The notes below the pieces were generated by a model. That model was not told where the DNA came from and searched no databases. It saw only the letters and a program-made list of their open reading frames with translations. DNA of 64,000 nucleotides from Anaerolineae bacterium (GTDB taxonomy: Bacteria; Chloroflexota; Anaerolineae; B4-G1; SLSP01), in assembly GCA_034429475.1 (NCBI GenBank), contig DAOUGD010000250.1, positions 21,527 through 85,526 of the forward strand, written 5' to 3'. A program made the position numbers and the translations under genes. Shown in pieces: positions 27,080-54,125 of the stretch (position 1 is the first letter of the stretch; every line of letters begins with the position of its first letter).

Positions 27080-27688
27080 ATGACCGATTCCCCTACCCAT
27101 TTACCCGATGCATACCAGGAAGTCTTGTATTGGAAGTTGTCCCATCACAACAAGTTGTTGATCGCCTTGAACGTGGTCGGATTGGCGCTGATGTTAGGGG
27201 CGCTCAGCGCGTTCACGGCCTGGGCCAATGTTTGGCAGCCGGGCGGCCTTCATGACGACTTGAACATCGTACAGATAGTGCTTACCCTGATCAGCGTCGT
27301 GTTGGTGATGGTGCTGCACGAACTGGTGCATGGGATCGCGCTCAAAGCCTATGGCGCGCGCCCCAAGTACGGCGTGCTATGGCAACAGATGATGTTCTAC
27401 GCCACCGCGCCCAACCACGCCTTCCGCCGCAACGCCTACCTCGTCATCGCCCTGGCGCCGCTGGTGGGGATCAGCGTGGTGGGCTTTGTGTTGTTGATGC
27501 TGCCGCTGCCCGGCTGGCTGCTCTGGCTGATCGGGCTGTGCGCGGCGGTCAACGTTGGCGGCGCGGTGGGGGATATGTGGCTGGTGCGCGTCGCCCTGGG
27601 CTATCCGGCCCGCGCCTACATCGTGGACGAGCAGGACGGGGTGCGGGTGTTTATGCCGGAAGAGCCTGTTGCACAGATTCCATCGTGA
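27080..27688 (+). CDS. DUF3267-family membrane protein with an intact HExxH zincin motif
   Basis: LHELVHGIALKAYG, plus TM helices. Confidence 0.7.
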   Translation: MTDSPTHLPDAYQEVLYWKLSHHNKLLIALNVVGLALMLGALSAFTAWANVWQPGGLHDDLNIVQIVLTLISVVLVMVLHELVHGIALKAYGARPKYGVLWQQMMFYATAPNHAFRRNAYLVIALAPLVGISVVGFVLLMLPLPGWLLWLIGLCAAVNVGGAVGDMWLVRVALGYPARAYIVDEQDGVRVFMPEEPVAQIPS

Positions 27689-27735
27689 CCCATAGAAATC
27701 AAAAACCGTAATCCTTTTTCGTGCAAGGTGTACCA

Positions 27736-28335
27736 ATGTCATTCTTACCCGCAAATCTCCCGAACACCTATCAGGAAGCCCTGTACTGGAAATTGCCCCA
27801 TCGTCGCGAGTTGCCGCTTCTTTTGGATGTGGTGGGCTTCGCATTGATGATGGTGATGGGTGGAGTGTTTACAACCTGGGCTAGGTTATGGCATTTGCCC
27901 GATTCTTTTAGCGGTTTAACCTATGACCAACAGTTGTTATGTGTCCTAGTCGCGCTTTTTCTGATACCAGGCCTTCACAAGTTGATGCATGGTTTCGTAC
28001 TCAAGGCCTATGGTGTGCGCCCGAATTACCGTGTGTCATGGCAAGGACTGGTTGCCACCCACTCAAGCTATGCTTTCCATCGTAACCAATGCCTCGTGAT
28101 TGCGTTGGCGCCATTGGTGGGGATCAGCGTATTGGGTAGCTTACTACTGATGATGCCGTTACCTGACTGGCTTCTTTTTATAATCGTTGCTTCCACAGCA
28201 TACAACATCGGCCTACCAATGGGCATAAAGGATATATGGCTGATGTATATAATTATGAAATATCCGCCCCATGCTTATATTGTGCCTGAACAAGACGGCA
28301 TGCGTGTCTTCATGCCAGGAGAAGCACCCCAATGA
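27736..28335 (+). CDS. DUF3267-family paralog with a degenerate motif (HKLMH)
   Basis: Collinear with the 27080 protein, but HELVH is replaced by HKLMH. The start could be the GTG at 27721. Confidence 0.65.
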   Translation: MSFLPANLPNTYQEALYWKLPHRRELPLLLDVVGFALMMVMGGVFTTWARLWHLPDSFSGLTYDQQLLCVLVALFLIPGLHKLMHGFVLKAYGVRPNYRVSWQGLVATHSSYAFHRNQCLVIALAPLVGISVLGSLLLMMPLPDWLLFIIVASTAYNIGLPMGIKDIWLMYIIMKYPPHAYIVPEQDGMRVFMPGEAPQ

Positions 28336-29291
28336 TGCGCTGGGGAATGTGCTGTTTCCTCCTATGCGCACTGGGACTGTCCGCGTGCATCCCTGCCCTG
28401 CCCACACTGCCGCCGACGCCGGCCATACCATCCACGCCCACACCGCCTTCCCGCGACTTCGCCATTGTCGGCTACCTGCCCGACTACCGCACGCTCGATC
28501 CGGCGTGGGGGCGCTACGTCACCGACATCGTCTACTTTTCCGCCGGGCTGCGCGCCGATGGGGAACTGGACACGACTCGGCTAGACGCGCAAACCCTCGC
28601 CGCGTTGCGCGAGATGCGCTCCATCTATGGCACGCGCGTCTTTATCGCCATCGGCGGATGGGAGCGGTCGGGAGGCTTCGCCGCCGTCGCCGTTGACCCG
28701 GCGCTGCGCGCGTCCGTGGCGCGGACGCTCACCGCGTACTGCCTCGAAAACGGGCTGGACGGCGTGGACTTCGATTGGGAGTTCCCCGAAGGCGCCGCCG
28801 AGATCGCGGGCTACGTGGCGCTGCTCGCCGAAGTCCACACGGCGTTTGCGCCGCACGATCTGCGGGTCAGCGTGGCGCTGGCGGCGTGGCAAGACCTGGG
28901 GAGCGGGTTGTACGCGGCGGCGGATCGCATCCACATCATGGCCTACGATCACGATGGGCGCCATTCGACGTTTGAGCAGGCCGCCGAGGACATCCAGGTT
29001 TTCCTGAAGCGGGGCGCGCCGTCGGAGAAACTCCTGCTTGGCGTGCCGTTTTACGGACGCAACGTCCAAAACCCCGCCATCGCTCTGACCTACGCGGAGA
29101 TCGTGAGCACCCATCACCCCGCGCCGGACGTAGATGAGGCAGGCGGCGTCTACTTCAACGGCATTGCCACCATTCAAAAGAAGACCCGCTACGCGCAAGA
29201 GCAAGGGCTGTGCGGCGTGATGATCTGGGAACTGGGGCAGGATACGACGGATGACACGTCGTTGCTCCGGGCAATCTGGCAAAATCAATAA
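28332..29291 (+). CDS. glycoside hydrolase family 18 (chitinase-like) lipoprotein
   Basis: GH18 catalytic motif DGVDFDWEFP. Lipobox LSAC after the signal peptide. Confidence 0.8.
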   Translation: MMRWGMCCFLLCALGLSACIPALPTLPPTPAIPSTPTPPSRDFAIVGYLPDYRTLDPAWGRYVTDIVYFSAGLRADGELDTTRLDAQTLAALREMRSIYGTRVFIAIGGWERSGGFAAVAVDPALRASVARTLTAYCLENGLDGVDFDWEFPEGAAEIAGYVALLAEVHTAFAPHDLRVSVALAAWQDLGSGLYAAADRIHIMAYDHDGRHSTFEQAAEDIQVFLKRGAPSEKLLLGVPFYGRNVQNPAIALTYAEIVSTHHPAPDVDEAGGVYFNGIATIQKKTRYAQEQGLCGVMIWELGQDTTDDTSLLRAIWQNQ

Positions 29292-34252: not shown

Positions 34253-37200
34253 TATGAGAACTAAACGCTTTACCTTTACTCTGACCACGGGGCTGGGAAG
34301 TTTGCTGCTCCTGGTAACGCTGCTGCTCCTCTCTCCGACCCAGCCCGGTAGCGCCCACGCGGCAGACGTCACCCCTGGCGAGACGGCCCTGGGCGTGCGC
34401 GCTCCCCTCGATCCCGATCCGCCGTTTTCCCCAGCGCGGCTGCTGGGGCCGACCCAGTCGCCGCGGATTTTCGCCCGGTACTACGCGGACGGGCGTAATG
34501 ATGTGTTTGGATTCAACGCCGTTGCCAGCGGCACGGTTCTGATCACCATCACGCATCCTACCGAGGGGATCATTGCAACCGGCAGCACCATCGCCGGCAC
34601 ATGCAATGGCTGCAATCCCACCGATTACCAGCTTGATTTTCCCGATTGGACACTCACGGCTGGGGTCAGCGTGACGGTGGATGCCGGGCCGGGGATGGTC
34701 GAATCGGTCGAGGTGGTTTCCATCACCGGTGATCCCGACGCCGAGACGGACATCGTCATCGGCGACGCCCCGGCGGGAGGCCAGATGAATGCCTTCGTGC
34801 AGCGCCCCGGAAACCAGGCAGACATCAACGACGTGCAGGTGGACGTCAGCGGCGTCTACACACTGGATTTCGCCGCGGTGGGCTGGGATATTTTGCCCGG
34901 CGACGAGTTCCACGTGTACTACCACGCGCCGGGCGGCCACAACGTCGAATCGGTCTTCTGGCTCCCTGCGCCGGTGCTGAGCATCAACAAGTGGCACGTG
35001 AGCGGCTTTGCTCGACCGGGCGGCAAACTCGTGTACGGCATCGGTTACTGGAATGATGGCGGCATGGTCGCAACGGACGTCGTCATTACGGACACGCTGC
35101 CCGTCTCCACCACCTGGGCCGGCGATACGAGCGGCCTGACGCCCGACATCGGCGCGAATGGCGTCATCACCTGGCACATCGGCAGCCTCCCCGATGAGGG
35201 CATCTACGGCAACTGGGGTGTCTTCTTTGTCACGTTGGACGTCGCCGCCGACATGCCGACCGGGGAGGGGGTCATCCCCAGCAATTGCGCTACCATTTCG
35301 ACGAGCACGCCCGGCGATGCCAACCCCGACGACAACACGGCTTGCAGCGGCAGCGTGGATGTGTGGAACAGCGACGTGGGCCTTAATGTGGACAAATGGC
35401 CCAGCCCCGGCGATCCCACGCCGGGCCAGGAGTTCGATTACACCCTCCGCTGGTGCAGCGACTACGGGGCGAATTTCGGGCCGGTCTGGTTGACCGACAC
35501 GCTGCCCGTCTCGACGACGGTGGTCGGTTGGAGCACCGACGAGTGGTGGGGACAAATGCTGTGGACCGAAGTCGTCACCACCGGCGGACAGTTCGCGCTC
35601 TACGCGCCGGGTCTGCCGGGCGATTGGTGCGAACACATCACCCTGCGCCTGCGCGTTGACCCCGCTGCGCCGGAAGAGCTGCTGCTGAGCAACCACGTCA
35701 TTGTGACGACACCCGGCGACGCGCAGCCCGACAACAACGAACGCCTCAACGAAGATGCGCGCACGAGCAATCCGCGCCTGGATTTACACCTGGACAAAAG
35801 CCTGAACAGCGGGCGGCTCGTCCCCGGCGGATGGATCAATTACTTCTTGTGGTATGGCAATCAGGGGAACATGGCGGCGCCGGTCGTGATCACAGAGACC
35901 GTCCCCACCGGTCTCACCTTCGACTCTGCCTGGTGGGGCGGCGGGCAGCCGGGTGCGGACGAGCCGCTGCCCGCGCCGGTAGTGGTGGGCGATCAACTTG
36001 TGTGGGACCTGAGCGAGCTGCCGGTGAACGGGAGCCGTTGGTTCCACATCCAGATGGCTATCACGGATACCCTCCAGGCCGGCGACCTCATCACGAACTG
36101 CGCCGACCTCAGCATCAACGACGGGGAACGCACCCCGGAGGACAACCACAGGTGCTACACGGTGAAGCTCAACTCCCCCGGCCCCAACCTGCGCGTGACC
36201 AAAGAATCCTGGTGGAACGGCAACAGGCAGTTGGGCTACCGCATCAGCTTCTTCAACCTGGGGGATGAAACTGTCTCCAACGTCTGGATCACCGACACGT
36301 TGCCGACCGGCGTGGCCTGGGAAGGGTGGTATAACCTGAACTTTGATTCAAATCGCCTGGCGGAGGAGGCGCTCCCCGGCGACGTGCTGGCCTGGCGCTT
36401 CACGGAGCTGTATCCGGGCGACAACGGCAACCTGGAGTTCAATACGAACCTGGACGAACCCGGTGCGCCGGTACGCTGGTACACCAACACGGTGGAGATC
36501 ACCGTGCCGGACGGCGACGTCAACCCCGCCGACAACGCTGGTGAGACCGTGGACTTCAGCGGCGGCGAGGTGGAATGGGTGGACGTGGACGTCTACCGCA
36601 CCCGCATCTGGGGCTGCGCGCCGCAAGGCCCTGTTACTGTCACCACGGCGGCGGCAGAAGTGATCTTCGGCAATGACTGGAACGAGAATAACTTCCCCGA
36701 TACCTTCGACCCCGGCGACGTCGTCACTGTGACGGCCGGCGCGGGACGGTATCCGGTGGTCATTACCATTCCCGATCCCTTCACCGGGCAAATTGACTCC
36801 GTCGCCGACACGGTTTGGGGGCAGATTGACGCGCTGGATCACGCACAGGTCGAGGTGGACTTGTGGAACATCGGTTCGCAATGGACGGAAACCGATGCCC
36901 AGGGCCATTACAGCGTCACTTACCCCGACATCCCGCACGGTGCGCAAGGCGACGTAGGATATTGGACCGAGATTGCTTACGCCAGCGTCGGCTTCCACCA
37001 CCGGCTGGTCAACCTGGACCTGACCGTCACCGTGGATTACAGCGACAATGGCGTAGACAGCACCTATGAACGCGGGCACACCGGCTGGGTCACTGTCACC
37101 AGCAACCTTACCACAGAAATCAAGGCGACCGTCGAGGTCACCACGGAACAGTGGCCCTCGTGGAACGGCGGCAGCGGCTTCTCGACCCATCATCACCCCT

Positions 37201-40200
37201 GGGCCCCGTCGCAGCCCGACATTCAACCGGGCGATTGGGTCTACGCCGTGTTGGACAACGGCTATAGCGCCGCCGTGCAGGTAGGAACCATCAACGCTGC
37301 GGTGGATGCGGACAACGATGTGGTATCCGGCGCCCTCGATGTGCCGTGGTTCTCCGAAGGCTTGCCGGTCAGGTGCGAAATTCACGAGGAAAATGCGCCG
37401 GGCATCGAAATTCAGAACGTCGATCCCCAGGGCGGCGCGTTCTTCTGCGACTTCGGCGGCATGTGGGACATTCAGCCCGGTCAGAACGTGGCGGTGCGCT
37501 ACGCCGAACCGGACGGCAACCAGGTGATGGCCCGCCCCGCCAATCCCGCGCCGCGCCTGCGCGTGGAAAAATGGCTGGAAAGCGGCAATCCCGGCGAGAA
37601 TAGCAATGCAACTTTCTACGTGCAATACCGTAACGAGGGCGACGACGCGGCCGAGAATGTCGTCATCACCGACACGCTGCAAGGGATGACCTACATCACC
37701 GACACCTCCGGCTTCACGCACACCGGCAGCGGCGACCAGATCGTCCTGGACTTGGGGACGGTCGCGCCGGGTGAGTGGATTTACTTCTACGTCTTTGCCG
37801 AGGTCACGGCGGGGGCGGGCGAGCGCGTCACCAACACCGTCCAGATCGCCACCAGCGATCCCTACGATCAGGGCGACCCGTCAGAGAAATGGCGCGAGTG
37901 GAGCGGCGACGTGCAGCCCAACGATACGACCCTTAACATCGGCAAGCAGTCGTGGACCGGCGACCCTGCGGCCGGCTACGCCATGATCTTCCAACTCAGC
38001 TCGTGCAACAACGGCGGCACGGGCAGCCTGGCGGTAACGATCACCGATACGCTGCACCCCTCCATGACGCTCCAAACCTGGTGGAGCGACAATCCCGGAT
38101 GGCGCGAAGTCAGCCGTGGCGCGCAAGAACTGGTTCTCGCCAAACCCACGCTGCCGGGCTGGCGTTGCGAGAACGTCTATGTCCGCGCTACGGTAGATGC
38201 GGAGGCCGAGTCGGGGATGTTCATCTCCAACACAGCCACAATCTACGCGGCCAACGATCTCAGCACCGGCGACGATGAAGCCGGGTGGGGCGGCCACGTC
38301 GCCGCGCCGCGTCGCAATCTGCTGGTTGACAAGTATTGGAACTGGGGGCAACTGACCCCCGGCGGCGAATTGCGCTACAACCTCAACTACAACAACACCG
38401 GCAACGTCCCGGTGGGCGCGTTCCGCATCACCGACACGCTGCCGGTGAGCACGACCTTCGTCAGCGCGTGGCAGGATAATCACCCCTTCACGCCGACTCT
38501 CATTGATGACGGTATGGTGGTGTGGGAGTTTGCCGGGCTGGATAACGGCTACGCTAACGGGTTCGAGGTAATCCTGAGGGTGGATGCTGACGCTATCCCC
38601 GGTACGCTGCTGGTCAACACCGCCGAGATTTCCTGTCTGCCGGGCGAAGAGACTTGCGACGACAACGTCAGAAGTTGGACCGAGACACTCCTCAACCACG
38701 GCCCGAACCTGCGCGTGACCAAGTGGGGCGACTGGCACGGCGACCGGCCGGGGCACGCCCGGTATGAATTCCATGTGGAGAACGTGGGGGACGTTGCTGT
38801 CGCGCAGGCTGTCATCACGGATACCTACCCCATGGTAATGACATTGGAAGGGGGGATTGACGTAGATTGGGGCCGCGTGGCGGATTATACGGAGAATGCT
38901 GCGGAACACTGGCTCCAACTCACGCTTAACGATGTAGGCCCCGGCTACCGGCTGGATATCCGTTTCAATACCACGATGGAGGAACCGGTGGCCGAGGGAC
39001 TGATCCTCACCAACACGGTTGCTGTCGCGCCGGTCGCGGGCGATACCAACCCCGCCGACGACAGTACGGATTACGTCCTCACCACCGGCCCCGATCTCTA
39101 CGTCGAGAAGACGCTGGTCGGCGGCGCGTTGCTGCCCGGCGAACTGGTCACCTTCAGCCTGCGCTTCGGCAACGACCAGCCGGGTCACACCTGGTGGTGG
39201 AATATGGAGGGTAACACGCGGCTCACGGACATTCTGCCGGCGGGCCTGACGTACGTTTCCGCGCACCTGCGTTACTGCGGCGGCTCTGAGTGGTGCGCGC
39301 GTCCCCCTGATGTGCGACTCGATCCGATCCAGGTGTGGTGGTTTGATCCCCTCAACGCCGGCGCGTGGAATGAGCTTTACCTGACCGCCCGCATCACGGA
39401 CACAGCTACCGGGCGGGAGACTTTCACCAACACGGCTCAAATTGCCAGCAACCAACCTGCCGACGATACCGACCCCGACTCCACCAACAACTACGCGACG
39501 CTCACGCTGCCCATTGACCTGCCGTACTTTGAGGTCAGCAAGGACTACGAGAGTACAACCGTCGCCGGAACGCCCATCACCTACACCCTGACGGTGACGA
39601 ACAGCGGCAATCGCGTGGGCACAGGCGTCATCCTCAGCGACACCATTCCACAGGGCTTGGGAAACCCCGGCGGCGGGACGCTTGAGTTTGGCGCGGCTCG
39701 CTGGCTTTTCGCCATGATCGGCGTGGACGAGACAGCGACGGCGGAATTGACCGGCCTCCTGCCCTGCGCCGGCAGCGTCGTCAACGCTGACTACCGCGTC
39801 GTCACCAGCGACCAGGGCGTGGGCAGCGCCGTGGGCGCGCCGGTCGTCCTGAACGTTCTCGCCCCCACCCTCGTTGCCGACCTGGAGCAGAGCGCCGCCA
39901 GCGCCGTGGTCAGCGCGACGTTGTCTTTCACCGGCAGCGCCGCCACGAATGGCCCGGCGGTCGCGGCGTGGGCCTGGGACTTCGGCGACGACAGCGCGCC
40001 GGCCATGACGCCCAACGCCGTCCACACCTACGTCACCGACGGCGTCTTCCCTGTCACCCTCACCGTCACCGACACGTGCGGCTACACCGCGACGGCCACC
40101 AGCGCGGTCACGGTCACGCCGCCAGCGCTCGTGGCGAGCTTCATCCAGAGCGCGGCGCAGGTCAGGCCGGGTGACACGGTCACGTTCACCAGCACCAGCA

Positions 40201-40433
40201 CAACCGATGCGCCGCCTATCGTCGCGTGGGCCTGGGACTTCAGCGACGACGCTACGTTGAAATTGGGGGCGATCGTGACGCATACCTATCTCACGGAGGG
40301 GACTTTCACCGTTACCCTGACGGTCAGCGATAGCCTGGGCTACCACGCTGTCGCGGCCTCGGTCGTCACGGTCAGTCAGGATCAGGTCTTCGTCTACCTG
40401 CCGCTGGTGTTGCGGGATTATCCGCCGCAATAA
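34253..40433 (+). CDS. giant secreted cell-surface protein: signal peptide, about 10 DUF11 (TDTLP) repeat domains, two PKD domains and a YLPLVLR C-terminal tail
   Basis: RBS AAGGAGGA 7 nt upstream of the ATG at 34253. Signal peptide MRTKRFTFTLTTGLGSLLLLVTLLLLSPTQPGSAHA. Repeated [IV]TDTLP motifs. WAWDFGDDS appears twice, the PKD signature. Ends ...VFVYLPLVLRDYPPQ. Confidence 0.85.
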
Positions 40434-40444
40434 GCTGCCCTACA

Positions 40445-40485
40445 CAACGGGAGAGGGACTTTGCGCGCAAAGCCCCTCTCCCGTT
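40445..40485 (+). terminator. GC-rich hairpin (terminator-like, no U tract) after the giant gene
   Basis: aacgggagaggg actttgcgcgcaaagc ccctctcccgtt. Confidence 0.5.
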
Positions 40486-40683
40486 CCCCCCTACATCCGC
40501 CCAGACCCTTCCTCAGAAACCGATTCTAGCCACACAATTCAAACAGGAATGCGGCGCGACGGGAGACTGATAAGATCCTGCAATAGCGATTTTTAACTTT
40601 CCGGGTATTATTGAGCGAAGGAAGGTAGGAAAATCTATGCCCAATTCCTCATTGCAAGATCATGGTGACCACAGGAGACCCGC

Positions 40684-42915
40684 GTGAGCAACACCAAACC
40701 CCCCTCATGTTGGCTGATTGTGTCCATCTATATCTTCATCCTCGCCCTGTTGAGTTGGTCCATCGTCCGGTTTGATCTGCCAGACAGTCTGCTGCTCATC
40801 GGTGTCGTGCCCTGTGTGTTATCGGCCTTTTTCTACAGTCGGGGAATTTACTGGATTATGTGTATCACGCTCGCCGTGATGGCTATCTGGGTTACATCCC
40901 TGGTTTCCGGCAATTTCGTCAGCTCGCTGGTCACGATCGCGATGGCCTCGTTCAGCGGGCTGGCGATGGCGGAGGGCGTGCGGGCGTTGGTCACAGCCCG
41001 GGCGCGCGCCGAAGACGCCTTGCAGCGCAGCGAAGAACGCCTGCGCACGCTGATCAATGCTACCCCCGATATCATCTGCTTCAAAGACGGCGCGGGGCGC
41101 TGGCTAGAAGCCAACCGGGCCGATCTCGAACTCTTCGAATTGCAAACGGTGGACTATCACGGCAAGACTGACGCCGAGCTGGCGCCGTTCAGCCCTTTTT
41201 ACCGCGACGCCTTCCTCACCTGCGAGCAGACAGACGAAACCGCCTGGCTTCAGGGCGCGACCTCACGCGGCGAGGAACGGATTCCCGTTCCCGATGGGAG
41301 CGCCCGCGTCTACGATGTCATCAAGACGCCGCTTTTTCACGCCCACGGTGGCCGCCGTGGCCTGGTGGTGCTGGGCCGTGACATCACAGAACGCAAGCGC
41401 GCGGAAGAAGCGTTGCGCGAAAGTGAGGAGAAATACCGGTTTTTGTTTGATAACGCCGGCGACGTGATCCTCATCCATGACGAAGAAGCGCGGATATTGG
41501 CCTTCAACAAACTGACCATCGAGCGGCTTGGGTACACGCCGGAAGAGCTGCTATCCATGACGATCCATCAAATAGATACACCGGAGCAAAGTCGGCAGGT
41601 GGCGGGCCGAATCGAACAGGTGCTGGAGCAAGGACAGATTGCCTTTGAAACCGTGTTACAGCGCAAGGACGGCTCGTATGTCTCGATGGAGGTTCGCACC
41701 CGACGCATCCTTTGGGACGACAAGCCGGCGCTGATGAGCATTGGACGCGACATTACTGAGCGCAAACAAGCCGAGGAAGCCCTGGTCCGCTACCGCGATC
41801 ATCTGGAGGAGTTGGTCCAGACCCGCACTGCCGAAGTACAACGCCAGTACGCGCAGTTAGGCACCATCTTGCGCAGCGCCGGCGACGCCATTTGTATGAC
41901 CGATCCTGAGTGGCGCATCTTGTACATCAACCCGGCCTTCACCACCTTGACTGGCTATCTGGCAGACGAGGTGCTGGCCCGGAATATGTGTGACTTGAGC
42001 GTGATGGTGGATTGCGCCTCACACTTGTCGGCCATTCTCCCGGTCCTGAATCAGGGGAAGCTCTGGCAAGGAGAAATGCTGGGTCAGCGCAAGGATGGCC
42101 GGAACTACACGGCAGAGTTCATCGTCGCGCCGGTGCATGACGACGCCGGACAAGTCAGCGGTTACGTCTTTACCCACCACGACGTCAGCCAGGCCAAAGA
42201 CCTGGAACGCGCGCGCGATCAGTTCATCACCAACGTCTCCCATCAATTCCTCACCCCCCTCACCCCGCTCAAGACCGGCATCTACCTGCTCCGCCGCACG
42301 CTCGTCTCGGAAAAACAGCAGCAACAGTTGACCGCGATGGAGACGGCCATAGACTGGCTCATCCATCTGGTCAAGGACACACTGGAAATCTCAACGTTGG
42401 ACAGTGGCAAAGGCGTCACGACCTGGGAACCGGTTTCCCTGCTGGACATCGTTGATGAAGTGCTGAAGCGTCACCAACGCCAGGCGCAGCAGGGCGAACT
42501 GGCCCTCACCGCCGCGCCGATCCCCGCCGATTTGCCGCCCGTGCAGGGCGATCCCGCGCGGTTGATCCAGGCATTGGGCGAGCTGGTGGAAAACGCAGTG
42601 ACCTTTACTCCTGCCGGAGGACAGATTAACGTGGCGGTGCGGTCCGACAACCGCCATGGTGAAACCTGGGTCGCGGTGGCGGTGCAAGACAACGGCCCCG
42701 GCATACCCCCGGAAGAGCTGCCGCGACTGTTTGAACGCTTTTTCCGAGGACGCCTGGCCGAGCCGGGTCACATTGCTGGCATCGGGTTGGGGCTGTGCAT
42801 CGCCCAGAAAATCGCCCAGGCGCACGGCGGCAACATCACCGTCGAGAGTACGGTGGGGCAGGGCAGCACCTTCACCCTATGGCTACGGGCGGCGACCGGC
42901 GGCGCGGCGCGGTAA
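40684..42915 (+). CDS. orphan sensor histidine kinase with multiple PAS domains
   Basis: N-terminal TM helices, three PAS-like segments, the HisKA H-box ITNVSHQFLTPL, and HATPase_c motifs NAVTFTP, DNGPGIP and GIGLGL. GTG start as listed; no response regulator adjacent. Confidence 0.8.
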   Translation: MSNTKPPSCWLIVSIYIFILALLSWSIVRFDLPDSLLLIGVVPCVLSAFFYSRGIYWIMCITLAVMAIWVTSLVSGNFVSSLVTIAMASFSGLAMAEGVRALVTARARAEDALQRSEERLRTLINATPDIICFKDGAGRWLEANRADLELFELQTVDYHGKTDAELAPFSPFYRDAFLTCEQTDETAWLQGATSRGEERIPVPDGSARVYDVIKTPLFHAHGGRRGLVVLGRDITERKRAEEALRESEEKYRFLFDNAGDVILIHDEEARILAFNKLTIERLGYTPEELLSMTIHQIDTPEQSRQVAGRIEQVLEQGQIAFETVLQRKDGSYVSMEVRTRRILWDDKPALMSIGRDITERKQAEEALVRYRDHLEELVQTRTAEVQRQYAQLGTILRSAGDAICMTDPEWRILYINPAFTTLTGYLADEVLARNMCDLSVMVDCASHLSAILPVLNQGKLWQGEMLGQRKDGRNYTAEFIVAPVHDDAGQVSGYVFTHHDVSQAKDLERARDQFITNVSHQFLTPLTPLKTGIYLLRRTLVSEKQQQQLTAMETAIDWLIHLVKDTLEISTLDSGKGVTTWEPVSLLDIVDEVLKRHQRQAQQGELALTAAPIPADLPPVQGDPARLIQALGELVENAVTFTPAGGQINVAVRSDNRHGETWVAVAVQDNGPGIPPEELPRLFERFFRGRLAEPGHIAGIGLGLCIAQKIAQAHGGNITVESTVGQGSTFTLWLRAATGGAAR

Positions 42916-42932
42916 TCGCGGCGCGCCAGCCC

Positions 42933-44744
42933 TCAAGGCGCGGCGCGCAACACCAGCGGCAGGTACAAGGGATAGAGCCGCTCGACGATGCGCACGGTGA
43001 GCGGCACGACGAATGGGCTTTGCAGCACCGGCGGCGCGGTAGTCAACGTAATAGCGCCGGTGTAAATGCCGACGGGGAGGCCGCGCGGGTCAACCGTAAC
43101 CCTGAACGCGCTCAGTTGCATGGAGAACGACTCGTACCACACACTGATGGTGGGGGCGGCGCTGAACGTGATCCCCTGCGTGGCCGTGACCAGGCTCCAA
43201 TCGAACGGGTAGTCGCCGACGTTTTCCACAATCACAGTCGTGGCGGCCGGGTGAGTGTCCGAGACGGCCATCATCCATCCCAGGGTGGCGGGTCTTACGC
43301 TCATCCCCCAACGGCCGATGACGTTGAGAGTCAGCGGAATCGTGAGGGGATTGCCGGGCATACAATCTGCCGCGGCCGTCACGGTGACGACGCCGGTGTA
43401 CGTCCCGGTCAGCAAGTCGCGCGCGTCCACCACAATCTGGAAGCTCTCCCCGGCAACTCCCCCGGTCACGGTGACGCTGAACGGCAGTCCCTGCGCCGCC
43501 GTACCGAGAGTCCACGTGAAGGGGCGCTCGCCGGTGTTCTCCACCGTGACCGTCTCAGTGAAGAGCGCCCGATCCCGCAGGTGGACGTTCCACTCAAAGG
43601 TGATGGGGGTCACGCGCATCCCCTGCACATACCACGGACAGGGGCGCTTGGGCATCTCTTGCAAACCCGTATACGCCAGACGCGGGCTGCCATCGGGCTT
43701 CAGCACCGAAAACCACCGGAGTGGATCACATGGCGCCATCCATGCACTCGGCAGGGTCGCAAAGTCCAGGTTGGAGACCAGCATCACCTGCATCCAGGGC
43801 CAGTGGGCGTCCGCGTAAGCGAAGGCGCGGGTGAGGTAGGTACTCTGGCTGATGGCGCTGCCCTGCTGCCACGCGAATCCCCCACTGTCCCACTCCGGGT
43901 CACATTCCACGCCCTCTTCGTCGGAATCCAGCAGCCAGCCGAACTCCGTCGCCCAGACCGGCTTGTCGCCATCGCCGTGCGCCGCCATGACCGCATAAAT
44001 ATCCTCGGCGCGCCGGAAATTGTTGACGCCCCAGCCATAGGCTTTGTCTTCCGGCGGGCCGCCAAAGCCGTAGTTGTGGAGGCTGATGGCATCGAAGTAG
44101 CCGTGCAGTCCCGCGTCGTACATGGCCTCGAGGTAGGTCACGTCGTTGATCGCGTGGACGCTGTCCCCGCCGGTGGGCGCAAGGCCGCCGGCAACGACGA
44201 TCACGGCCGGATCGCCGGCCTTCGCGCCGACGTAGGCCCGTGTAACCATTTCCGTGTAACGCACGGCATCCAGGGGTTGGCCGGCCCACTGAAAATCAAG
44301 GTTGGGTTCGTTCCACACCTCAAGGGCGACCCGGTAGCCGTTGCCGCAGGCCGCGCGCTGCTGCCCCACGTACTCCGCCAGCGCCTGGAAGAACGCCTGC
44401 CACCCCGCCATCTCGCTATCCTGGATGGGCTGCCAGTTATCAGAGGCCCGCTCAACGCGCAGCACCAGGTTGAGTTGGTTATTGCACGCCTCGTCCAACC
44501 GCCATTTCACGGTATCCCAGTTGTAGACACCGTCGCGGTCGGGATCAACATCATTCCAGCGAGCAAAATATTTGAACCAGTCGAAGCCCGCGTCGCTCAC
44601 CGCGCTCATGTGAGCTGGGTCGGCAGGATAGCCGAGCATCATCCCATAGCCGAGGTGCGGCCCCGTCTCCTGAGCGCGCGCAGGGATAACCCACCCCAGC
44701 CAGCCGACCACGGCCAAACACAGCGCAACCCCAAGCTTACGCAT
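42933..44744 (-). CDS. secreted clan GH-A (GH5-like) glycoside hydrolase with C-terminal Ig-like domains and a YLPLVLR tail
   Basis: Signal peptide. Acid/base motif LEVWNEPN and nucleophile motif ATEFGW. Ends ...RLYPLYLPLVLRAAP. Confidence 0.8.
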   Translation of the reverse strand: MRKLGVALCLAVVGWLGWVIPARAQETGPHLGYGMMLGYPADPAHMSAVSDAGFDWFKYFARWNDVDPDRDGVYNWDTVKWRLDEACNNQLNLVLRVERASDNWQPIQDSEMAGWQAFFQALAEYVGQQRAACGNGYRVALEVWNEPNLDFQWAGQPLDAVRYTEMVTRAYVGAKAGDPAVIVVAGGLAPTGGDSVHAINDVTYLEAMYDAGLHGYFDAISLHNYGFGGPPEDKAYGWGVNNFRRAEDIYAVMAAHGDGDKPVWATEFGWLLDSDEEGVECDPEWDSGGFAWQQGSAISQSTYLTRAFAYADAHWPWMQVMLVSNLDFATLPSAWMAPCDPLRWFSVLKPDGSPRLAYTGLQEMPKRPCPWYVQGMRVTPITFEWNVHLRDRALFTETVTVENTGERPFTWTLGTAAQGLPFSVTVTGGVAGESFQIVVDARDLLTGTYTGVVTVTAAADCMPGNPLTIPLTLNVIGRWGMSVRPATLGWMMAVSDTHPAATTVIVENVGDYPFDWSLVTATQGITFSAAPTISVWYESFSMQLSAFRVTVDPRGLPVGIYTGAITLTTAPPVLQSPFVVPLTVRIVERLYPLYLPLVLRAAP

Positions 44745-44906
44745 TTTACACCTCCATGTTGGAACAGGGGACTTAGTTGCTCACGTTATAGTCAAACCGT
44801 GGCGGCTGTCAATTCGGCGCGGGGAAACTTCTGCGCGAATAAAAACGGACCGGTGAATCACCGGCCCGTTCTCAGGTATGCGCCAAGCGTGTGGGAAATG
44901 AAATTT

Positions 44907-46181
44907 CTAGTCGTGGTAGGCGCGCAGCATAAGGGGAAGGTAGATCGTGCGGAAAATGACCATATTCTCAAATTCCGCCGTGCTCCCATAAACATCAGGC
45001 CCCGGCGCTGCAATCTCTGCCGCATTGTGCAAAATACGTATTGGCATACCCTGCGCCGTGACCGTGATCACAGCCATCCCGGTTTCGTTGGGAGCGATGG
45101 TGGGGATTTCCCACACAACCCGTGTGTTGCTGAGGAGTGTGGGGGGCGTCGGCACAGTTCCCACCACCGTCACATCGGCGGGCAGGGTGTCGGTCAGCCG
45201 GACCGAAGTGGCGACGTGATTTCCGATGTTTTGATAGGTGAGGGTGTAAACCATGGGTTCGTTGATGTAAGTCTGCGCCGGCGCGCCGGTCTTGGTCAGG
45301 TATAAGATTGCTCCTTCCGAGACGACCTGCGTGGCAAACAACTCGGACGTGATGGGCAACTCATCGGCGGTCGCCATAGCCGTGTTGGTAATCACCCCAA
45401 TCGTAGTCGGCGACGTCACCACGAGCGTCGCCATCCACGTCTCCCCTACCTCCAACGTTCCCACCGTCCACCGCAGTAACGGCAGCGTCACCTCCGCCGG
45501 CGCCGGGGTCGCCGATTGGTAAATCACGTCGCCCGGCAGAAGGTCCAAGACTGTAATGTTCCGAACCGGAACTTCACCGGTATTTTCGCACTGCAATTGA
45601 TATACCAATTCCCCCTCTTTCAGCACGACGGGATAACCGGTTTTGGTGAGAACCAGTTCACGCACGGGGGGCGCGACGATCGTGTGGACTGAAGCGTGCG
45701 TCGGCGTGACCCCGTCGGCGGTGACGATAGCGTGGTTGTACAGCTCGTCAAACCCTTCTTGCACTATGCCATACACGACGACTTCCACCGGTGTTGTCCC
45801 CGGCCCAATCGAAGGCGCATTGAAGGTCAAGACGCCGTCGGCGTAGCTAGCGTAGGAGGGGTTGGTCGAGATGAGCTGAATCCCGGCCGGCAGGAAATCG
45901 TAGAGACGCACGTTGAACGCCTGCGACCCGGCATTGGTGTTGGCGTAGCGCAACGTGTAAATCACCGTCTGGCCGGGGCGTGGGGAAGTCAGGTTGGCTT
46001 CCTTAGAAATCGTCAAAGCCGGATTGCCTATCGGGCTTTCAAAAGTCAACAGCGCCGGCTTCAAGGACGATGCCTGGAGTGTTTCCGTTGGCAGCCCCCA
46101 CACCAACGCCAGCCACAATCCAACCAAACCACCCAAGATCAACCAGGTTCTCAAAATACGGTTTCTTTTTTCAGATAACAT
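44907..46181 (-). CDS. secreted DUF11-repeat protein with a YLPLMLR tail
   Basis: N-terminal TM helix/signal peptide. Three DUF11-like repeats with the motifs LYDFLP, VLDLLPGD and LTDTLPAD. Ends ...FRTIYLPLMLRAYHD. Confidence 0.75.
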   Translation of the reverse strand: MLSEKRNRILRTWLILGGLVGLWLALVWGLPTETLQASSLKPALLTFESPIGNPALTISKEANLTSPRPGQTVIYTLRYANTNAGSQAFNVRLYDFLPAGIQLISTNPSYASYADGVLTFNAPSIGPGTTPVEVVVYGIVQEGFDELYNHAIVTADGVTPTHASVHTIVAPPVRELVLTKTGYPVVLKEGELVYQLQCENTGEVPVRNITVLDLLPGDVIYQSATPAPAEVTLPLLRWTVGTLEVGETWMATLVVTSPTTIGVITNTAMATADELPITSELFATQVVSEGAILYLTKTGAPAQTYINEPMVYTLTYQNIGNHVATSVRLTDTLPADVTVVGTVPTPPTLLSNTRVVWEIPTIAPNETGMAVITVTAQGMPIRILHNAAEIAAPGPDVYGSTAEFENMVIFRTIYLPLMLRAYHD

Positions 46182-47399: not shown

Positions 47400-48551
47400 A
47401 TGGCATTGATTGAGGTGATCTCCGACAACACCGGAACTTTCCTAGCAAGCCGAAGAAGTCGCTGGTTTTTCCCCCTTCTCGTGCTGTGCTGGTTCGGATT
47501 TGCGCTGCGCGTTTACCGTCTGGACGCGCAGTCTTTTTGGTTCGATGAGTGGTTGAGCTTCGATCTGGCCCGCGCACCGTTGCTCTATGCGCCCGCAACG
47601 ATTGATCGTCCCCCGCTATACTACGTACTGCTGCACCTCTGGATCAGGATCGCCGGCGTCTATCCTTTCACGTTTCGCTTCTTTTCGGCCTGCTGCGGTG
47701 CGTTGACCGTGCCATTGTTTTACCGGTTGGGGCGGAAGACGCTGGGACGGCAGGCGGGTATGTGGGCTATGACGCTGGCGGCGCTTTCCCCGTTTTGCGT
47801 CTACTACGCGCAGGAAGCCCGCACTTACGCGCTGACGTTGACCCTGATCCTGGCCTCGAATTGGGCGCTGCTCGCATGGCTGGACACAGGCCGGAAGCGC
47901 ACCCTGGCGCTGTACATGGCAGTGACGCTGGCGTGCCTGTACACTCACTACGTCGCGTTGCTGATCCCGGCGGCGCAAGGCCTCTTCGTCTGGCTGAGCC
48001 GCCCCGGTAAGCAGCGCCATCTTCAATGGCTGGCTGCGCTGGCCGCGATTGGCGCAGCGTTTGCGCCCTGGCCGCTGCACGTCTGGACGCACATGGCGGA
48101 ACTGGCCCACCCGGCCACGGATATGCTCATCTACACGCCGATGCCGCCGCTCCAACGCGCCGCGCACATCTTGTGGACGACGCTGGTGGAGTTCAGCGTG
48201 GGGCGCACGGTGAGCGGCCCGGCGGCCATCGGCGGCGCGCTGCTCTTCCTGTTCCTGGTTATTTTGGGGCTGCGCCCGGTAGACGCGACGCCCCAGGCGC
48301 AGCGGTTTCTCTCTTGCACGTTGGCGCTGCCTGTGGCGGTGCTGTTGCTTTTGCCGCGCACGGCGGTATATTTTTCGCCCAAATACCTAAGCGTGGCGCT
48401 GCCCGGATTCTACTTGCTGGCCGTTGCCGGCTTGCAACGACTCCGCCGCGACGCGCCCTGGCTTTTTGTTCTCTGCCTCGCGCTCGTATTGCTCGCGTGT
48501 GCGTGGAGCTTGGGAGATTGGTTTTTGCATAGTCACGACAAAGTGGCGTAA
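47400..48551 (+). CDS. GT-C-fold glycosyltransferase (GT39/ArnT/PMT-like)
   Basis: Multi-TM protein with an N-terminal FWFDEW loop motif typical of GT39/ArnT-like enzymes. Confidence 0.65.
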   Translation: MALIEVISDNTGTFLASRRSRWFFPLLVLCWFGFALRVYRLDAQSFWFDEWLSFDLARAPLLYAPATIDRPPLYYVLLHLWIRIAGVYPFTFRFFSACCGALTVPLFYRLGRKTLGRQAGMWAMTLAALSPFCVYYAQEARTYALTLTLILASNWALLAWLDTGRKRTLALYMAVTLACLYTHYVALLIPAAQGLFVWLSRPGKQRHLQWLAALAAIGAAFAPWPLHVWTHMAELAHPATDMLIYTPMPPLQRAAHILWTTLVEFSVGRTVSGPAAIGGALLFLFLVILGLRPVDATPQAQRFLSCTLALPVAVLLLLPRTAVYFSPKYLSVALPGFYLLAVAGLQRLRRDAPWLFVLCLALVLLACAWSLGDWFLHSHDKVA

Positions 48552-50361: not shown

Positions 50362-50703
50362 TTACGCCACCGCAAACCCCGTCAACGGGCGGACATCGGG
50401 CGGCTGGAAGGCCAGCACAATATCCTCTTTGGGGATGCCGGCTGCCAGCAGGTCCGGTGTGATGCCGTGTTCCAGCCAATCCTCTTCAATCCACAACTTG
50501 TCATCCCGCAACCGAACATACACCGTTGTGCCGCGAATTCGCCGCTGTTGGTCCCAGCCGGTCGAAACCAACATATAGTGGTCATGCTCCGTGTCGGCGA
50601 CCACTTCGGTTTCCTTGCCCGGCCTAGCAGAACGGTTAATCACGTCGGCGTATTGCGTAAGAATTTGCCGGATGATGTGCCGATAATGAGTTAATTTGTC
50701 CAT
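50362..50703 (-). CDS. xisI: XisI-family protein
   Basis: Characteristic XisI sequence, e.g. YRHIIRQILTQYA and HYMLVSTGWD. Confidence 0.8.
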   Translation of the reverse strand: MDKLTHYRHIIRQILTQYADVINRSARPGKETEVVADTEHDHYMLVSTGWDQQRRIRGTTVYVRLRDDKLWIEEDWLEHGITPDLLAAGIPKEDIVLAFQPPDVRPLTGFAVA

Positions 50704-51107
50704 ACAACCACCTCCTCTTGCGCCAGATTAACCACAATTAAGGCCATCTTATTCCGTTGCACCAGCAATTGAATAGCTTTGCGGGCGAAGACGTTTTCGT
50801 AGACGGGTAGACTAACCGCCAGATATAAATGGCGATCTGGTTCAACGGCTTCCAACAGGCTTTGATAGAGCACATATTGCCCCAAGGCTTCTTCCATTGC
50901 GTGGATGACCGAAGGCGCTATAAAACTTTTGATTTCCACCGCAATTTTCTGCCCCGCTCGTTCTGCTGCGATCACCCGTTCCGCGCCCAGGTCAACAAAA
51001 ACCGTCGTATCTTCATACTCCAACGTGTAAGGATCGTGGGTGATCGTCCACCCGTCTTTGATCAAAGCATTTCTGACAGCCGTATGAATGATGTCTTTTG
51101 CGGGCAT
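50691..51107 (-). CDS. xisH: XisH-family protein (PD-(D/E)xK nuclease-like)
   Basis: XisH signature MPAKDIIHTAVRNALIKDGWTIT. Overlaps xisI. Confidence 0.8.
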   Translation of the reverse strand: MPAKDIIHTAVRNALIKDGWTITHDPYTLEYEDTTVFVDLGAERVIAAERAGQKIAVEIKSFIAPSVIHAMEEALGQYVLYQSLLEAVEPDRHLYLAVSLPVYENVFARKAIQLLVQRNKMALIVVNLAQEEVVVWTN

Positions 51108-51190: not shown

Positions 51191-51217
51191 CAGCGCGATT
51201 TGGAAATCGCGGCTACA
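51191..51217. repeat. short hairpin cgcgatttggaaatcgcggctaca (family I), 3' of uvrA
   Basis: A near-identical copy lies at 55297..55322. Confidence 0.6.
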
Positions 51218-54125
51218 ACACCCCCCGCAAATACCCCCCCGTATACGAGTCTTGCACTTCCGCCACCGCCTCCGGCGTCCCCTGCGCCACCAGCCGCCCG
51301 CCGGCGTCGCCGCCGTCCGGCCCCAGGTCTATGATCCAGTCCGCAGTCTTGATCACGTCCAGGTGATGCTCGATCACCAGGACGGTGTGGCCCGCGTCCA
51401 CCAGGCGGTTCAGGCTGAGCAGCAGCTTCTCGATGTCGGCGGCGTGCAGGCCCGTCGTCGGCTCGTCGAGGATGTAGAGGTTGTGCGCGCCGCGCTTCAG
51501 CTTCCCCAGCTCGTGCGCCAGCTTGACGCGCTGCGCTTCCCCGCCGGAGAGCTTCGTCGCCGGGTGGCCCAGCTTGAGGTAGCCCAGGCCCAGGTCGCGC
51601 AGCGTGCGCAGTTTGTGGACGACGCTGCGCGGGACGTCTCGCGTCTCCTCGAAGAAAGCCACCGCTTCCTCAATGGACAGGTCCAGCACGTCGGCGATGC
51701 TCTTGCCGCGGTACGTCACTTCCAACGTCTCGGCGTTGTAGCGCGCGCCCTTGCACACCGGGCATAGCGTCTCCACGTCCGCCATAAACTGCAAGTGCGT
51801 GTTCAGGTAGCCCTCACCCGCGCACTCCTCGCAGTGGCCTTCCTTCACGTTGAAGCTGAACCGCGAGGCGGTGTAGCCTCGCGCCCGCGCCTCCTCCGTC
51901 TCCGCGAACAGGCGCCGGATCGCGTCGTACACACCGATGTACGTCGCCGGGTTCGAGCGCGGCGTGCGCCCGATGGGCGACTGGTCAATGTCTATGATGT
52001 CGGTCACATACTCCACCCCTTCCACGGCGCGATGCTTGCCCGGCAAGGTACGGTGGTCATGCAGGGTGGCGTAGAGCTTCTTGTAGAGGATCTCGTGGAT
52101 GAGGCTGCTCTTGCCGCTGCCGCTCACGCCCGTCACGCAGATGAAGAGGCCCAACGGGAACGTCACGTCGAGGTCGCGCAGGTTGTTCTCCCGCGCGCCG
52201 CGGATCACCAGATTGTGCCCGTTGGGATGGCGGCGCATCTCCGGCAGGGGGATGCGCGCGGCCCCATCGAGGTATTGCCCCGTGAGCGAGGCCGGATCGT
52301 GCAGCACCATCTCCACCGGGCCGCACGTCACCACCTCGCCGCCGTGTTCGCCCGGCCCCGGCCCCATCTCGATGAGCGTGTCGGCGGCGCGGATGATCGC
52401 CTCGTCGTGCTCCACCACCACCACACTGTTGCCCAGGTCGCGCAGGCGGTGCAGCGTCTCCACCATCTTGCGCGTGTCGTAGGGATGCAGGCCGATGGTC
52501 GGCTCGTCGAGCACGTACAACATCCCCATCAGGTCGGAGCCAATCTGCGTGGAGAGGCGGATGCGCTGCGACTCGCCGCCGGAGAGCGTGTTCGACGGGC
52601 GGTTGAGCGTCAGGTAGTCCACGCCGATGTCGAGCAGCAGGCGCACGCGGCGGACGATCTCGCGGACGATCTGCGTGCCGGCCTCGCGCTTCTTCTCCGG
52701 GATGGGGACGGCTTCCAGGAAGGCGATGAGGTCGGCAAAGGCCATGTCGCCCAGCTCGTGGATGTCCTTCCCGGCGATGGTGACGAGGAAGCGCTGCGGT
52801 TTGAGTCGCTTGCCGCCGCAGTCGGGGCAGGTGTGCTCCACCATCACCTTCTTGAGCCACTCGTCCATCCAGGTGTTGAAGCGGCCCTCTTTGCGGTAGC
52901 GGCGGTAGTTGCGCTCGATAAAATTGATGATGCCCCCAAACGACATCTCGCGCCCTTCCCACCGCTCGCCGGTCTTCGCGCCGGGCGGGATCACCACCGG
53001 GAACTTCGCGCCCTTTGTCCCGTAAAAGAGGAGGTCCACAATCGCCGGCGGAAGGTCTTTGAACGGCGTGTCGAGGCTGAAGCCATAGGCCTGCGCCAGG
53101 CTATAGGCCATCCGCCCCGACCACGAATTCTTGTCGGGATTGAGCGCCTCCTTCGCCAACGCACCGCCCGCGATACTGCGGTGCGGGTCGAGGATGAGCA
53201 GCTCCGGGTGCACACTGCGATACGTCCCCAGCCCCAGGCACGTCACGCACGAGCTAGAGCCAGACGGCAAGTTGAAGCTGAAATACTGGGCTTCCATCTC
53301 GCCCTTGACCATCTGATGCTCCGGGCACGCCAGTTCTACGGGACGCAGATTTTCGCGGATGAACGCAGATTTTTCTGTATTTATCTGCGTTACTCTGCGT
53401 TCATCTGCGTCCAAAATATGGATGCTGATGAAGCCCTCCCCCAGCAGCAGACCGTGTTCGAGGGAGGCGAGGATCTGCTTGTCTTTGCCCGGATGGATGG
53501 CGAAGCGGTCTACGATGACATCAATCTGGTACGTCGTGTCCTCGTCCAGGTCAACGGGTTCGCTGAAGTCTACGAAGCGCCCGTCAATGTAGGCGCGGCG
53601 GTAGCCCCGCGTGCGCACCTCGTCGAAGAGATAGGCGTAGTCCTCGCCGTAGATCTTGAAGACGGGCGCGCGCACCTCCACTTCCGTCCCGGCGGGCAGC
53701 GTCAGCAGGTGGGCGAGCATCTGCTCCGGGCTGCGCGTGGGGACTTCGGCGCCGCAGTACGGGCAGTGCGCCACGCCGATGGTCGCGTAGAGCATCCGCA
53801 GGTAGTCGTAGATGTCGGTCATCGTGCCCACCGTCGAGCGCGGGTTGCGTACGCCGGTCTTCTGCTCGATGGAGATGACGGGCGACAGCCCATAGACAAA
53901 GTCCACGTTGGGCTTCTTGAGCTGCGCGATGTACTTCTTCGCAAACGTGGACATAGACTCCAGGAAGCGCCGCTGCCCCTCGGCGTAGACCGTGTCAAAC
54001 GCCAACGACGACTTCCCCGACCCGCTCACCCCGGTGATCACTACCAGTTGGTTCCGCGGAATCTCTACCGTGATGTTCTTCAAGTTGTGTTCTTTTGCGC
54101 CTTGTACGGTTATCGTGTCTCGCAT
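51213..54125 (-). CDS. uvrA: excinuclease ABC subunit A (canonical class I) with an embedded repeat element
   Basis: Two ABC modules, zinc fingers and the UvrB-binding domain. A family-C element at 53342..53412 is translated in frame as [22 protein letters not shown]. Confidence 0.95.
53342..53412. repeat. family-C hairpin element embedded in frame in uvrA
   Basis: gacgcagattttcgcggatgaacgcagattttt...ttatctgcgttactctgcgttcatctgcgtcc. Confidence 0.85.

Follow-up and report, generated by a model that had tools for sequence, protein, structure and literature searches.

Four genes for exported proteins in a 64,000-nt stretch of an Anaerolineae bacterium contig (DAOUGD010000250.1; this stretch at its full length is hereafter called the window) end in almost the same seven residues, YLPLVLR or YLPLMLR, a few codons before the stop. 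An earlier note on this DNA had taken the tail for a candidate new sorting or processing signal. We found that the four tails are further members of a motif already catalogued in NCBIfam as the YLP-box, and not a new one. On balance, we favour the reading that they are ordinary copies of a tag that is read in trans and that sorts or keeps its cargo at the cell surface.

YLP-box tails on four exported proteins

The six-frame translation of the window was searched with the pattern LP[LIVM][VMLI]LR. Exactly four matches were found in the six frames together, each preceded by Tyr and each in a long open reading frame (ORF), at 1 (protein A), 5 (B), 3 (C), and 4 (D) residues from the stop. When the window was shuffled 200 times, matches of the type YLP[LIVM][VMLI]LR occurred 0.005 times on average, compared with the 4 observed. 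All four proteins have signal-peptide-like N-termini, and Pfam and NCBIfam scans revealed domains that are unrelated apart from DUF11 in A, B, and D. Neither a transmembrane (TM) helix nor a basic cluster was found downstream of the tail in any of the four. The earlier note's description of one terminal tail on secreted proteins of differing domain content was thus borne out, except that it placed the start of protein B at 34253, one base off the called Met at 34254. A longer ORF for B runs from 34047, 69 codons further upstream, and its signal peptide starts at Met 34254. Named homologues of the window's proteins are all in metagenome-assembled genomes (MAGs) labelled 'Anaerolineae bacterium'.

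Two NCBIfam models, NF050076.1 (sort_motif_YLP) and NF053834.1 (ultrashort_CTERM), each bear the name 'YLP-box putative sorting motif-containing protein', with bit-score cut-offs of 15 and 10, respectively. As isolated tails, A, B, C, and D scored 17.1, 14.2, 13.8, and 13.3 bits with NF050076, and A and B scored 14.7 and 12.7 bits with NF053834, which matched neither C nor D. The cut-off was reached by A in both models and by B in NF053834; C and D lie 1 to 2 bits under that of NF050076. In the full-length NCBIfam scan NF050076 was found for A alone, at 11.9 bits. All four tails align in register with the last 8 to 10 of the 11 positions of NF050076. In A to D the motif is terminal with no TM helix after it, as the name 'ultrashort CTERM' denotes, and it is carried by exported proteins of unrelated families from a Chloroflexota genome. 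Sequence, extreme C-terminal position, and phylum are therefore alike between the tails and the two models, and nothing essential differs. The earlier note had named a match to an already described sorting domain as a result that would speak against its claim, and with this match the claim of novelty falls. The two entries offer a name only, with no mechanism.

A species-representative genome collection was scanned with one GC-rich back-translation of YLPLVLR, which yielded at least 118 loci. Of the matches listed, 62 of 82 from Chloroflexota have YLPLVLR no more than 5 residues ahead of the stop, versus 2 of 37 from other phyla (Fisher p = 2e-13). The Chloroflexota taxa listed were Anaerolineae, Thermoflexia/Thermoflexales, Caldilineales, Chloroflexia, Chloroflexaceae, and Herpetosiphonaceae. 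The remaining cases listed from other phyla sit inside conserved, apparently non-exported families, such as a recurring alphaproteobacterial sequence (...LYDAYLPLVLRAGGVPR...). A signal-like N-terminus was present in 32 of 43 complete YLP ORFs, compared with 70 of 215 neighbouring ORFs at the loci listed (p = 7e-7); the complete YLP ORFs that lack it are mostly explained by miscalled start codons. The cargo comprises GH5-like enzymes, esterases, nucleases, S8 and C25 proteases, and RHS, cohesin-containing, DUF11, and beta-helix proteins. In the largest YLP family among the matches listed, the NCBIfam 'choice-of-anchor Q' domain stands immediately ahead of the tail. The name of choice-of-anchor domains refers to their place ahead of C-terminal anchors that differ from lineage to lineage. 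Because such a domain directly precedes the tail, the YLP-box occupies the slot of a sorting signal.

Conservation of the tail was examined in relatives of protein C. Among its 120 homologues, those that keep the Ig-like domains retain a terminal [YH]-[LM]-P-[LV]-[VI]-x-[RK] followed by 0 to 8 residues, down to about 30% identity. Pro596 of C is invariant in an alignment of 83 orthologous sequences, where it is among only 28 invariant columns, together with the catalytic residues. The variants YMPLVMR and YLPLVQR substitute for one another among the orthologues, and across the Chloroflexota copies listed the synonymous codons of the heptapeptide vary with the usage of each genome. A stretch of 20 nt is identical in A, B, and C (TAYCTGCCGCTGGTGTTGCG), and D deviates from it at synonymous sites. 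Since the codons elsewhere follow normal usage, the 20 shared bases reflect codon bias and not a DNA element. These results show that the tail is a tag selected at the protein level and specific to exported proteins of Chloroflexota.

Anatomy of the motif and its position in the protein

The anatomy of the motif was derived from 171 tails of two independent families. Their consensus is [VI]-Y-L-P-L-V-x-R, with Phe or His in place of Tyr in about 15% of the tails, Lys in place of Arg in about 10%, and Pro kept in all. Position 6 is frequently polar (Q, H, R, or S). Behind the Arg there are usually 1 to 3 residues, the first being Asn, Gln, or Gly, often followed by Tyr or Phe. The YLP-box is thus a linear motif of 7 to 11 residues, [aromatic/H]-x-[VI]-Y-L-P-L-V-x-[RK]-[ND..], on many unrelated proteins exported by Sec, among them hydrolases, proteases, adhesin-like repeat proteins, and RHS proteins.

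Structure models were inspected for protein C and for a YLP-bearing C25 peptidase described below. Protein C itself gave only a weak Glyco_hydro_cc match, with no solid Pfam match, and a weak match to choice-of-anchor D; its relatives have PF00150 (GH5). Its AlphaFold 2 (AF2) model contains a confidently predicted TIM barrel and, behind it, two Ig-like domains, with a mean predicted local distance difference test score (pLDDT) of 89, and the tail (residues 588-603) is coil with a pLDDT of 67 falling to 50. The C25 model has a mean pLDDT of 92 and again a coil tail; in both proteins the tail lies at 50-67, and the last strand above 90. The box is therefore predicted to be a free short linear motif beyond the last folded domain, neither part of the fold nor a miniature membrane anchor.

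The box is not confined to C-termini. About 20 of the 82 Chloroflexota cases among the matches listed, or about a quarter, are non-terminal. Near the N-terminus, one protein has a signal peptide, 12 residues, YLPLVLR, a Pro/Thr linker, and DUF5107 (L069), and two have a signal or anchor, about 75 residues, the box, and GHL10 (L029 and L107). Between domains, the box separates a cohesin domain from a metalloprotease-like region (L037) and a DUF11-like region from PD40 repeats and GH88 (L076), and further inter-domain boxes are present in L063, L032, L109, and L114. A protein of more than 2600 residues from a Chloroflexota MAG (L056, JAJRSQ010000226.1) carries two tandem boxes in one Pro/Thr linker (...GGMVYLPLILKNYTPSASTPTPTP...TQSLYLPLVLRDYAPPTPTPGPT..., ORF residues ~2410-2470). 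The flanking preferences of non-terminal boxes are those of terminal ones, and R-[DN]-[YF]-x-P-P occurs behind internal boxes; the residues after Arg in protein B (D-Y-x-P-P; RDYPPQ before the stop) are the extension seen behind inter-domain boxes elsewhere. Of the earlier note's interpretation, the sorting or processing tag agrees with the reading of NCBI's curators, who named it a putative sorting motif, and with these results, the motif being selected, largely C-terminal, and specific to exported proteins; its position is not strictly terminal.

For the box of L101, a place in a loop of a cupredoxin-like domain was considered, but Pfam gave no match and this location is not claimed. A 668-residue protein (L125) has a degenerate internal box, VYLPLVLL, in which the Arg is lost, and a C-terminal region with the papain/C39-like Cys motif SGCGATAW; it has no NCBIfam match.

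Reading of the tag

In the reading that we favour, the cargo would be exported by Sec and the tag exposed afterwards. On the envelope's outer face, a factor specific to the lineage would then read the tag in trans and retain or sort the cargo at the cell surface. Surface retention or sorting is the task of LPXTG, PEP-CTERM, and the C-terminal domains (CTDs) of type IX secretion (the T9SS) in other bacteria. Because only Pro is invariant and no reactive side chain is, recognition would most likely be of the backbone or shape, by non-covalent docking or by peptide-bond cleavage or transpeptidation within the box, and not a side-chain modification. The box is used at either terminus as well as in linkers, and none of its reactive side chains is invariant, which argues for a tag that is read in trans. 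C25 peptidases, which carry one box either at the terminus or at an internal junction, also count for position independence. Most simply, a position-independent tag read in trans fits better than a classical cleave-and-anchor signal or a signal that involves the C-terminal carboxylate.

Several points weigh against this reading. No recognisable reader factor is encoded within the window. When the ORFs of the at least 118 loci were compared by all-versus-all BLAST and clustered, no non-YLP family recurred beside the YLP genes in the 61 loci listed. Among the matches listed, Arg itself is the last residue in 8 of the 62 terminal tails; therefore, cleavage after Arg is no universal step. The genome scan was seeded by a single GC-rich codon pattern, and the taxon range and proportions are approximate. 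A literature search for the YLP-box, the heptapeptides, or a sorting signal of Chloroflexota or Anaerolineae found no paper. To our knowledge, a 7-residue tag with no membrane segment is unprecedented among proven bacterial surface-anchoring signals. Processing, anchoring, and localisation of YLP proteins are putative, proposed here from sequences and models.

The most concrete alternative, which we consider unlikely, names an enzyme. One family that occurs five times among the 82 Chloroflexota YLPLVLR cases listed aligns along its full length with the NCBIfam model 'T9SS sortase PorU' (E = 6e-59, with a score under the cut-off for equivalogs) and also matches Pfam Peptidase_C25 (E = 1e-70 to 2e-90). 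The YLP-box could be the substrate signal of this PorU-like C25 (clan CD) cysteine peptidase or transpeptidase, in a monoderm counterpart of T9SS attachment. A surface-tethered enzyme would cut in the box and transfer the cargo to an envelope acceptor, or activate or release the cargo. PorU 6za2 is the closest solved relative of the family in sequence and in fold alike; for the fold, Foldseek gave E = 1e-33 across 833 columns, compared with 2e-19 for gingipain R. Across 104 homologues neither the catalytic His nor the catalytic Cys varies, and the Cys is flanked by Asp residues that are likewise invariant. Most of 120 homologues have exactly one YLP-box, usually terminal, and about a dozen have it at the junction of the N-terminal and catalytic domains with none at the end. 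PorU processes a C-terminal signal and has its own, uncleaved CTD. In three divergent Anaerolineae contexts, an operon was found that encodes, in this order, a C25 peptidase with a YLP-box (C25-A), a membrane protein, and a lipoprotein C25 peptidase (C25-B). The membrane protein has about 505-541 residues, an N-terminal domain resembling S24/LexA, Pro/Thr linkers, and a TM segment at the C-terminus; C25-B has the signal of a lipoprotein, and its His/Cys dyad is intact. A metagenome scan with C25-B found 2 loci, and C25 homologues are present in a sequencing run that also holds the window's genes.

On the other side, the peptidase is perhaps ordinary tagged cargo, like the S8 proteases, glycoside hydrolases, and nucleases, and the same data are equally compatible with that. 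The column of RgpB Asp163, which confers Arg-specificity, is not conserved in the family, and the S1 pocket is not decidable by sequence. In the AF2 model, the enzyme's own tail is a low-confidence coil with no confident docking. Tails that end at Arg offer no leaving group for cleavage after Arg, and the window has no C25 gene. The real substrate could also be neighbouring proteins with a classical C-terminal signal of the TM type. A literature search for C25 or PorU together with Chloroflexi found nothing relevant. There is thus a small chance that the YLP-box labels an undescribed Chloroflexota surface-attachment pathway, with the C25-A/C25-B pair and the membrane protein at its core, as a cousin of T9SS attachment. 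If true, this pathway would use a 7-residue signal with no membrane segment, usable at either end of a protein or between domains.

Two kinds of small genes were observed upstream of C25 genes. Directly upstream lie genes for small secreted proteins with a tripartite end, consisting of ...PTAVTFSGL..., a TM helix, and RKRK before the stop. No NCBIfam CTERM model matched this end at its cut-off, and it may represent a second, undescribed sorting signal of the same organisms. A conserved gene for a peptide of 30-35 residues (M(K)YEAPEIVYEGELEIQAGSP...) is also found upstream, and in one context (L129) it adjoins a PqqD/RRE gene. From its sequence, the peptide looks like the precursor of a ribosomally synthesized and post-translationally modified peptide, with a YxxPx[LI] leader motif.

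It is likewise unlikely that the box serves proteolytic maturation alone, as a linker that some housekeeping protease outside the cell would cut, and takes no part in sorting or anchoring. Boxes at domain borders, in Pro/Thr linkers, and sometimes in tandem, as in L056, agree with such a site, and so do the C25 peptidases with a box at the N-terminal/catalytic junction, approximately where gingipain zymogens are cut. However, about 75% of the cases would lose only 0-5 residues, or 7-12 if cut before the box, which is of no obvious value, and the box is conserved like catalytic residues.

We regard as quite improbable that the box acts by itself as an adhesive peptide, or one that forms strands, and binds the wall, the sheath, or other YLP proteins with no dedicated reader protein. 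Its hydrophobic core and the alternating pattern ahead of it ([aromatic]-x-[VI]-Y-L-P-L-V) would suit such a peptide, as would position independence and the negative search for partner genes. In contrast, the invariant central Pro and the often polar position 6 disfavour a plain strand or a membrane-inserting peptide, seven residues alone bind very weakly, and a sequence kept so sharply in hundreds of families typically has a single protein that recognises it.

The earlier note had nominated partner genes within the window, namely a pair of DUF3267 putative zincin peptidases, a C39-like peptidase, and a GT39-like glycosyltransferase (PMT_2), as those that process the tag. This is very improbable. 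In its favour, genes A and B have the DUF3267 pair between them (27080-28335), and the first copy of the pair keeps HELVH (HExxH) and weakly resembles an intramembrane metalloprotease, the second copy being degenerate (HKLMH). A DUF3267 gene also lies 3.4 kb from the orthologue of C in a distant relative (L135), and PMT_2 adjoins the D-C gene pair. However, no homologues of the DUF3267 pair, PMT_2, LspA, an S9-like hydrolase, or a 540-residue protein were found in 61 other 8-kb YLP loci. The C39_2-like gene, whose product has no signal peptide, belonged to no recurrent neighbour cluster and was not individually compared in the 61-locus check. Relatives of about 60% identity do not share the neighbourhood of the GH5-like gene (C), and the sole recurring pair is DUF3267-GH18, which is also found in L135. 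DUF3267 is consistently coupled with GH18 and not with YLP genes, which suggests that the two form a functional couple unrelated to the latter. Changes of Tyr to Phe and Arg to Lys in the box disfavour glycosylation of a side chain.

That the tails match by chance, or stem from a repeat at the DNA level (a shared 3' element or a recombination site, for example), was rejected as having next to no probability: the identical 20-nt stretch in A, B, and C is outweighed by synonymous differences in D, by free codon variation across Chloroflexota, by amino-acid variants that interchange among orthologues, and by an expectation of only 0.005 matches.

Gene context and comparison with known sorting systems

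The coordinates of the features are collected in Table 1. PF01345 (DUF11) appears as 'CLIPPER' in the precomputed Pfam labels, and a 2025 preprint describes these as domains with intramolecular isopeptide bonds (10.1101/2025.04.25.650565). The isopeptide-bond reading of the DUF11 domains in A, B, and D fits mechanically robust surface proteins. Rfam and tRNA scans of the window gave nothing. Elsewhere in the window, a XisH/XisI gene pair (PF08814/PF08869) was observed, which is best known in cyanobacteria, and two UvrA-like paralogues lie less than 10 kb apart. Both paralogues have the UvrA_DNA-bind, UvrA_inter, and ABC ATPase signatures, and the second leaves the window at its end.

Table 1. 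Coordinates of the YLP-box genes, their neighbours in the window, and related loci outside it. The gene map is based on precomputed contig Pfam annotation and on the profile scans of this analysis.
Feature	Sequence	Coordinates	Strand	Description
Protein A, 656 aa	window	14523-16493	+	signal peptide, FG-GAP propeller, one DUF11/CLIPPER domain, YLP-box tail
A tail, ...SVYLPLVLRN	window	YLPLVLR 16467-16487	+	N, then stop
LspA	window	23341-23874
Tandem DUF3267 pair	window	27080-27688 and 27736-28335	+	between tail genes A and B
GH18 gene	window	28332-29291	+	start overlapped by DUF3267 pair
Protein B, 2059 aa	window	34254-40433	+	signal peptide, 7 DUF11/CLIPPER, 2 PKD, YLP-box tail
B tail, ...VYLPLVLRDYPPQ	window	YLPLVLR 40395-40415	+	DYPPQ, then stop
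PAS/HisKA kinase	window			between B and C
Protein C, 603 aa	window	42933-44744	-	signal peptide, GH5-like TIM barrel, two Ig-like domains, YLP-box tail
C tail, ...LYLPLVLRAAP	window	YLPLVLR 42965-42945	-	AAP, then stop
Protein D, 424 aa	window	44907-46181	-	signal peptide, 3 DUF11/CLIPPER domains, YLP-box tail
D tail, ...IYLPLMLRAYHD	window	YLPLMLR 44942-44922	-	AYHD, then stop
Two small membrane proteins	window		-	upstream of D, on the strand of D
PMT_2 glycosyltransferase (GT39-like)	window	47400-48551		adjoins D-C gene pair
XisH/XisI gene pair	window	50362-51107	-	PF08814/PF08869
UvrA-like paralogue 1	window	51213-54125	-
C39_2-like protein, 196 aa	window	59731-60321		no signal peptide
UvrA-like paralogue 2	window	61765-64000	-	leaves the window at its end
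C25 operon	L127	10001-16773		other Anaerolineae, outside window
C25 operon	L129	10001-16159		other Anaerolineae, outside window
C25 operon	L131	2-5931		other Anaerolineae, outside window
Tripartite-signal proteins	L125	7777-8601, 8848-9708
Tripartite-signal protein	L009	2072-2605
Tripartite-signal protein	L129	9179-9739
30-35 aa peptide gene	L125	7561-7665, 8733-8837
30-35 aa peptide gene	L129	7623-7715		adjoins PqqD/RRE gene
30-35 aa peptide gene	L136	4263-4370
668-aa protein	L125	3297-5303	-	degenerate internal box VYLPLVLL
DUF3267-GH18 pair	L135	14129-15795		distant relative

Anaerolineae and related Chloroflexota are filamentous heterotrophs, abundant in sludge, sediments, and hot springs, whose envelope and surface biology is poorly known. 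The YLP-box marks a seemingly large share of their exported hydrolases, proteases, and adhesin-like proteins, and a seven-residue unstructured sorting tag with no membrane anchor would be mechanistically unusual. For the window, the value of the motif lies in annotating A to D as surface or secreted cargo and in the PorU-like C25 family as a concrete candidate. This family and the non-terminal copies of the box are the most useful leads.

The earlier note had also placed the tail outside the known architectures, and the searches agreed. Models of LPXTG (TIGR01167), PEP-CTERM, PGF-CTERM, GlyGly-CTERM, and T9SS CTDs (TIGR04183 and related) matched neither the proteins at E<=1 nor the isolated tails at E<=10, and no NCBIfam CTERM model besides the YLP ones matched A to D. 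Like LPXTG, PEP-CTERM, PGF-CTERM, and GlyGly-CTERM, the YLP-box is a short, Pro-containing signature near the C-terminus of unrelated Sec-exported proteins of one lineage. The order of signature, hydrophobic stretch, and basic residues in LPXTG-type signals is echoed in miniature by YLP, LVL, and R. Unlike those signals, the YLP-box has no TM helix, only three hydrophobic residues of which position 6 is often polar, and a single basic residue, with only 0-5 residues after the motif; it may also be N-terminal or internal. No sortase or exosortase gene was seen near the YLP genes.

In the eukaryotic CaaX box and other ultrashort terminal signals, likewise, a handful of end residues has a dedicated enzyme to read it. 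CaaX requires an invariant Cys and a set spacing to the C-terminus, whereas no reactive side chain of the YLP-box is invariant and its distance from the end varies (0-5 residues or more). T9SS CTDs are folded, comprise about 80 residues, and serve diderm bacteria (Bacteroidota) with an outer-membrane translocon; Chloroflexota are generally regarded as monoderm. A to D have a DUF11, PKD, or Ig-like domain as their last folded one, and the box comprises 7-11 unstructured residues. With these differences, the two systems share the same classes of cargo, namely glycosidases, proteases, adhesins, and RHS-type proteins, and the PorU-like C25 peptidase of Chloroflexota, whose link to the YLP-box is putative, has a YLP-box itself just as PorU has a CTD.

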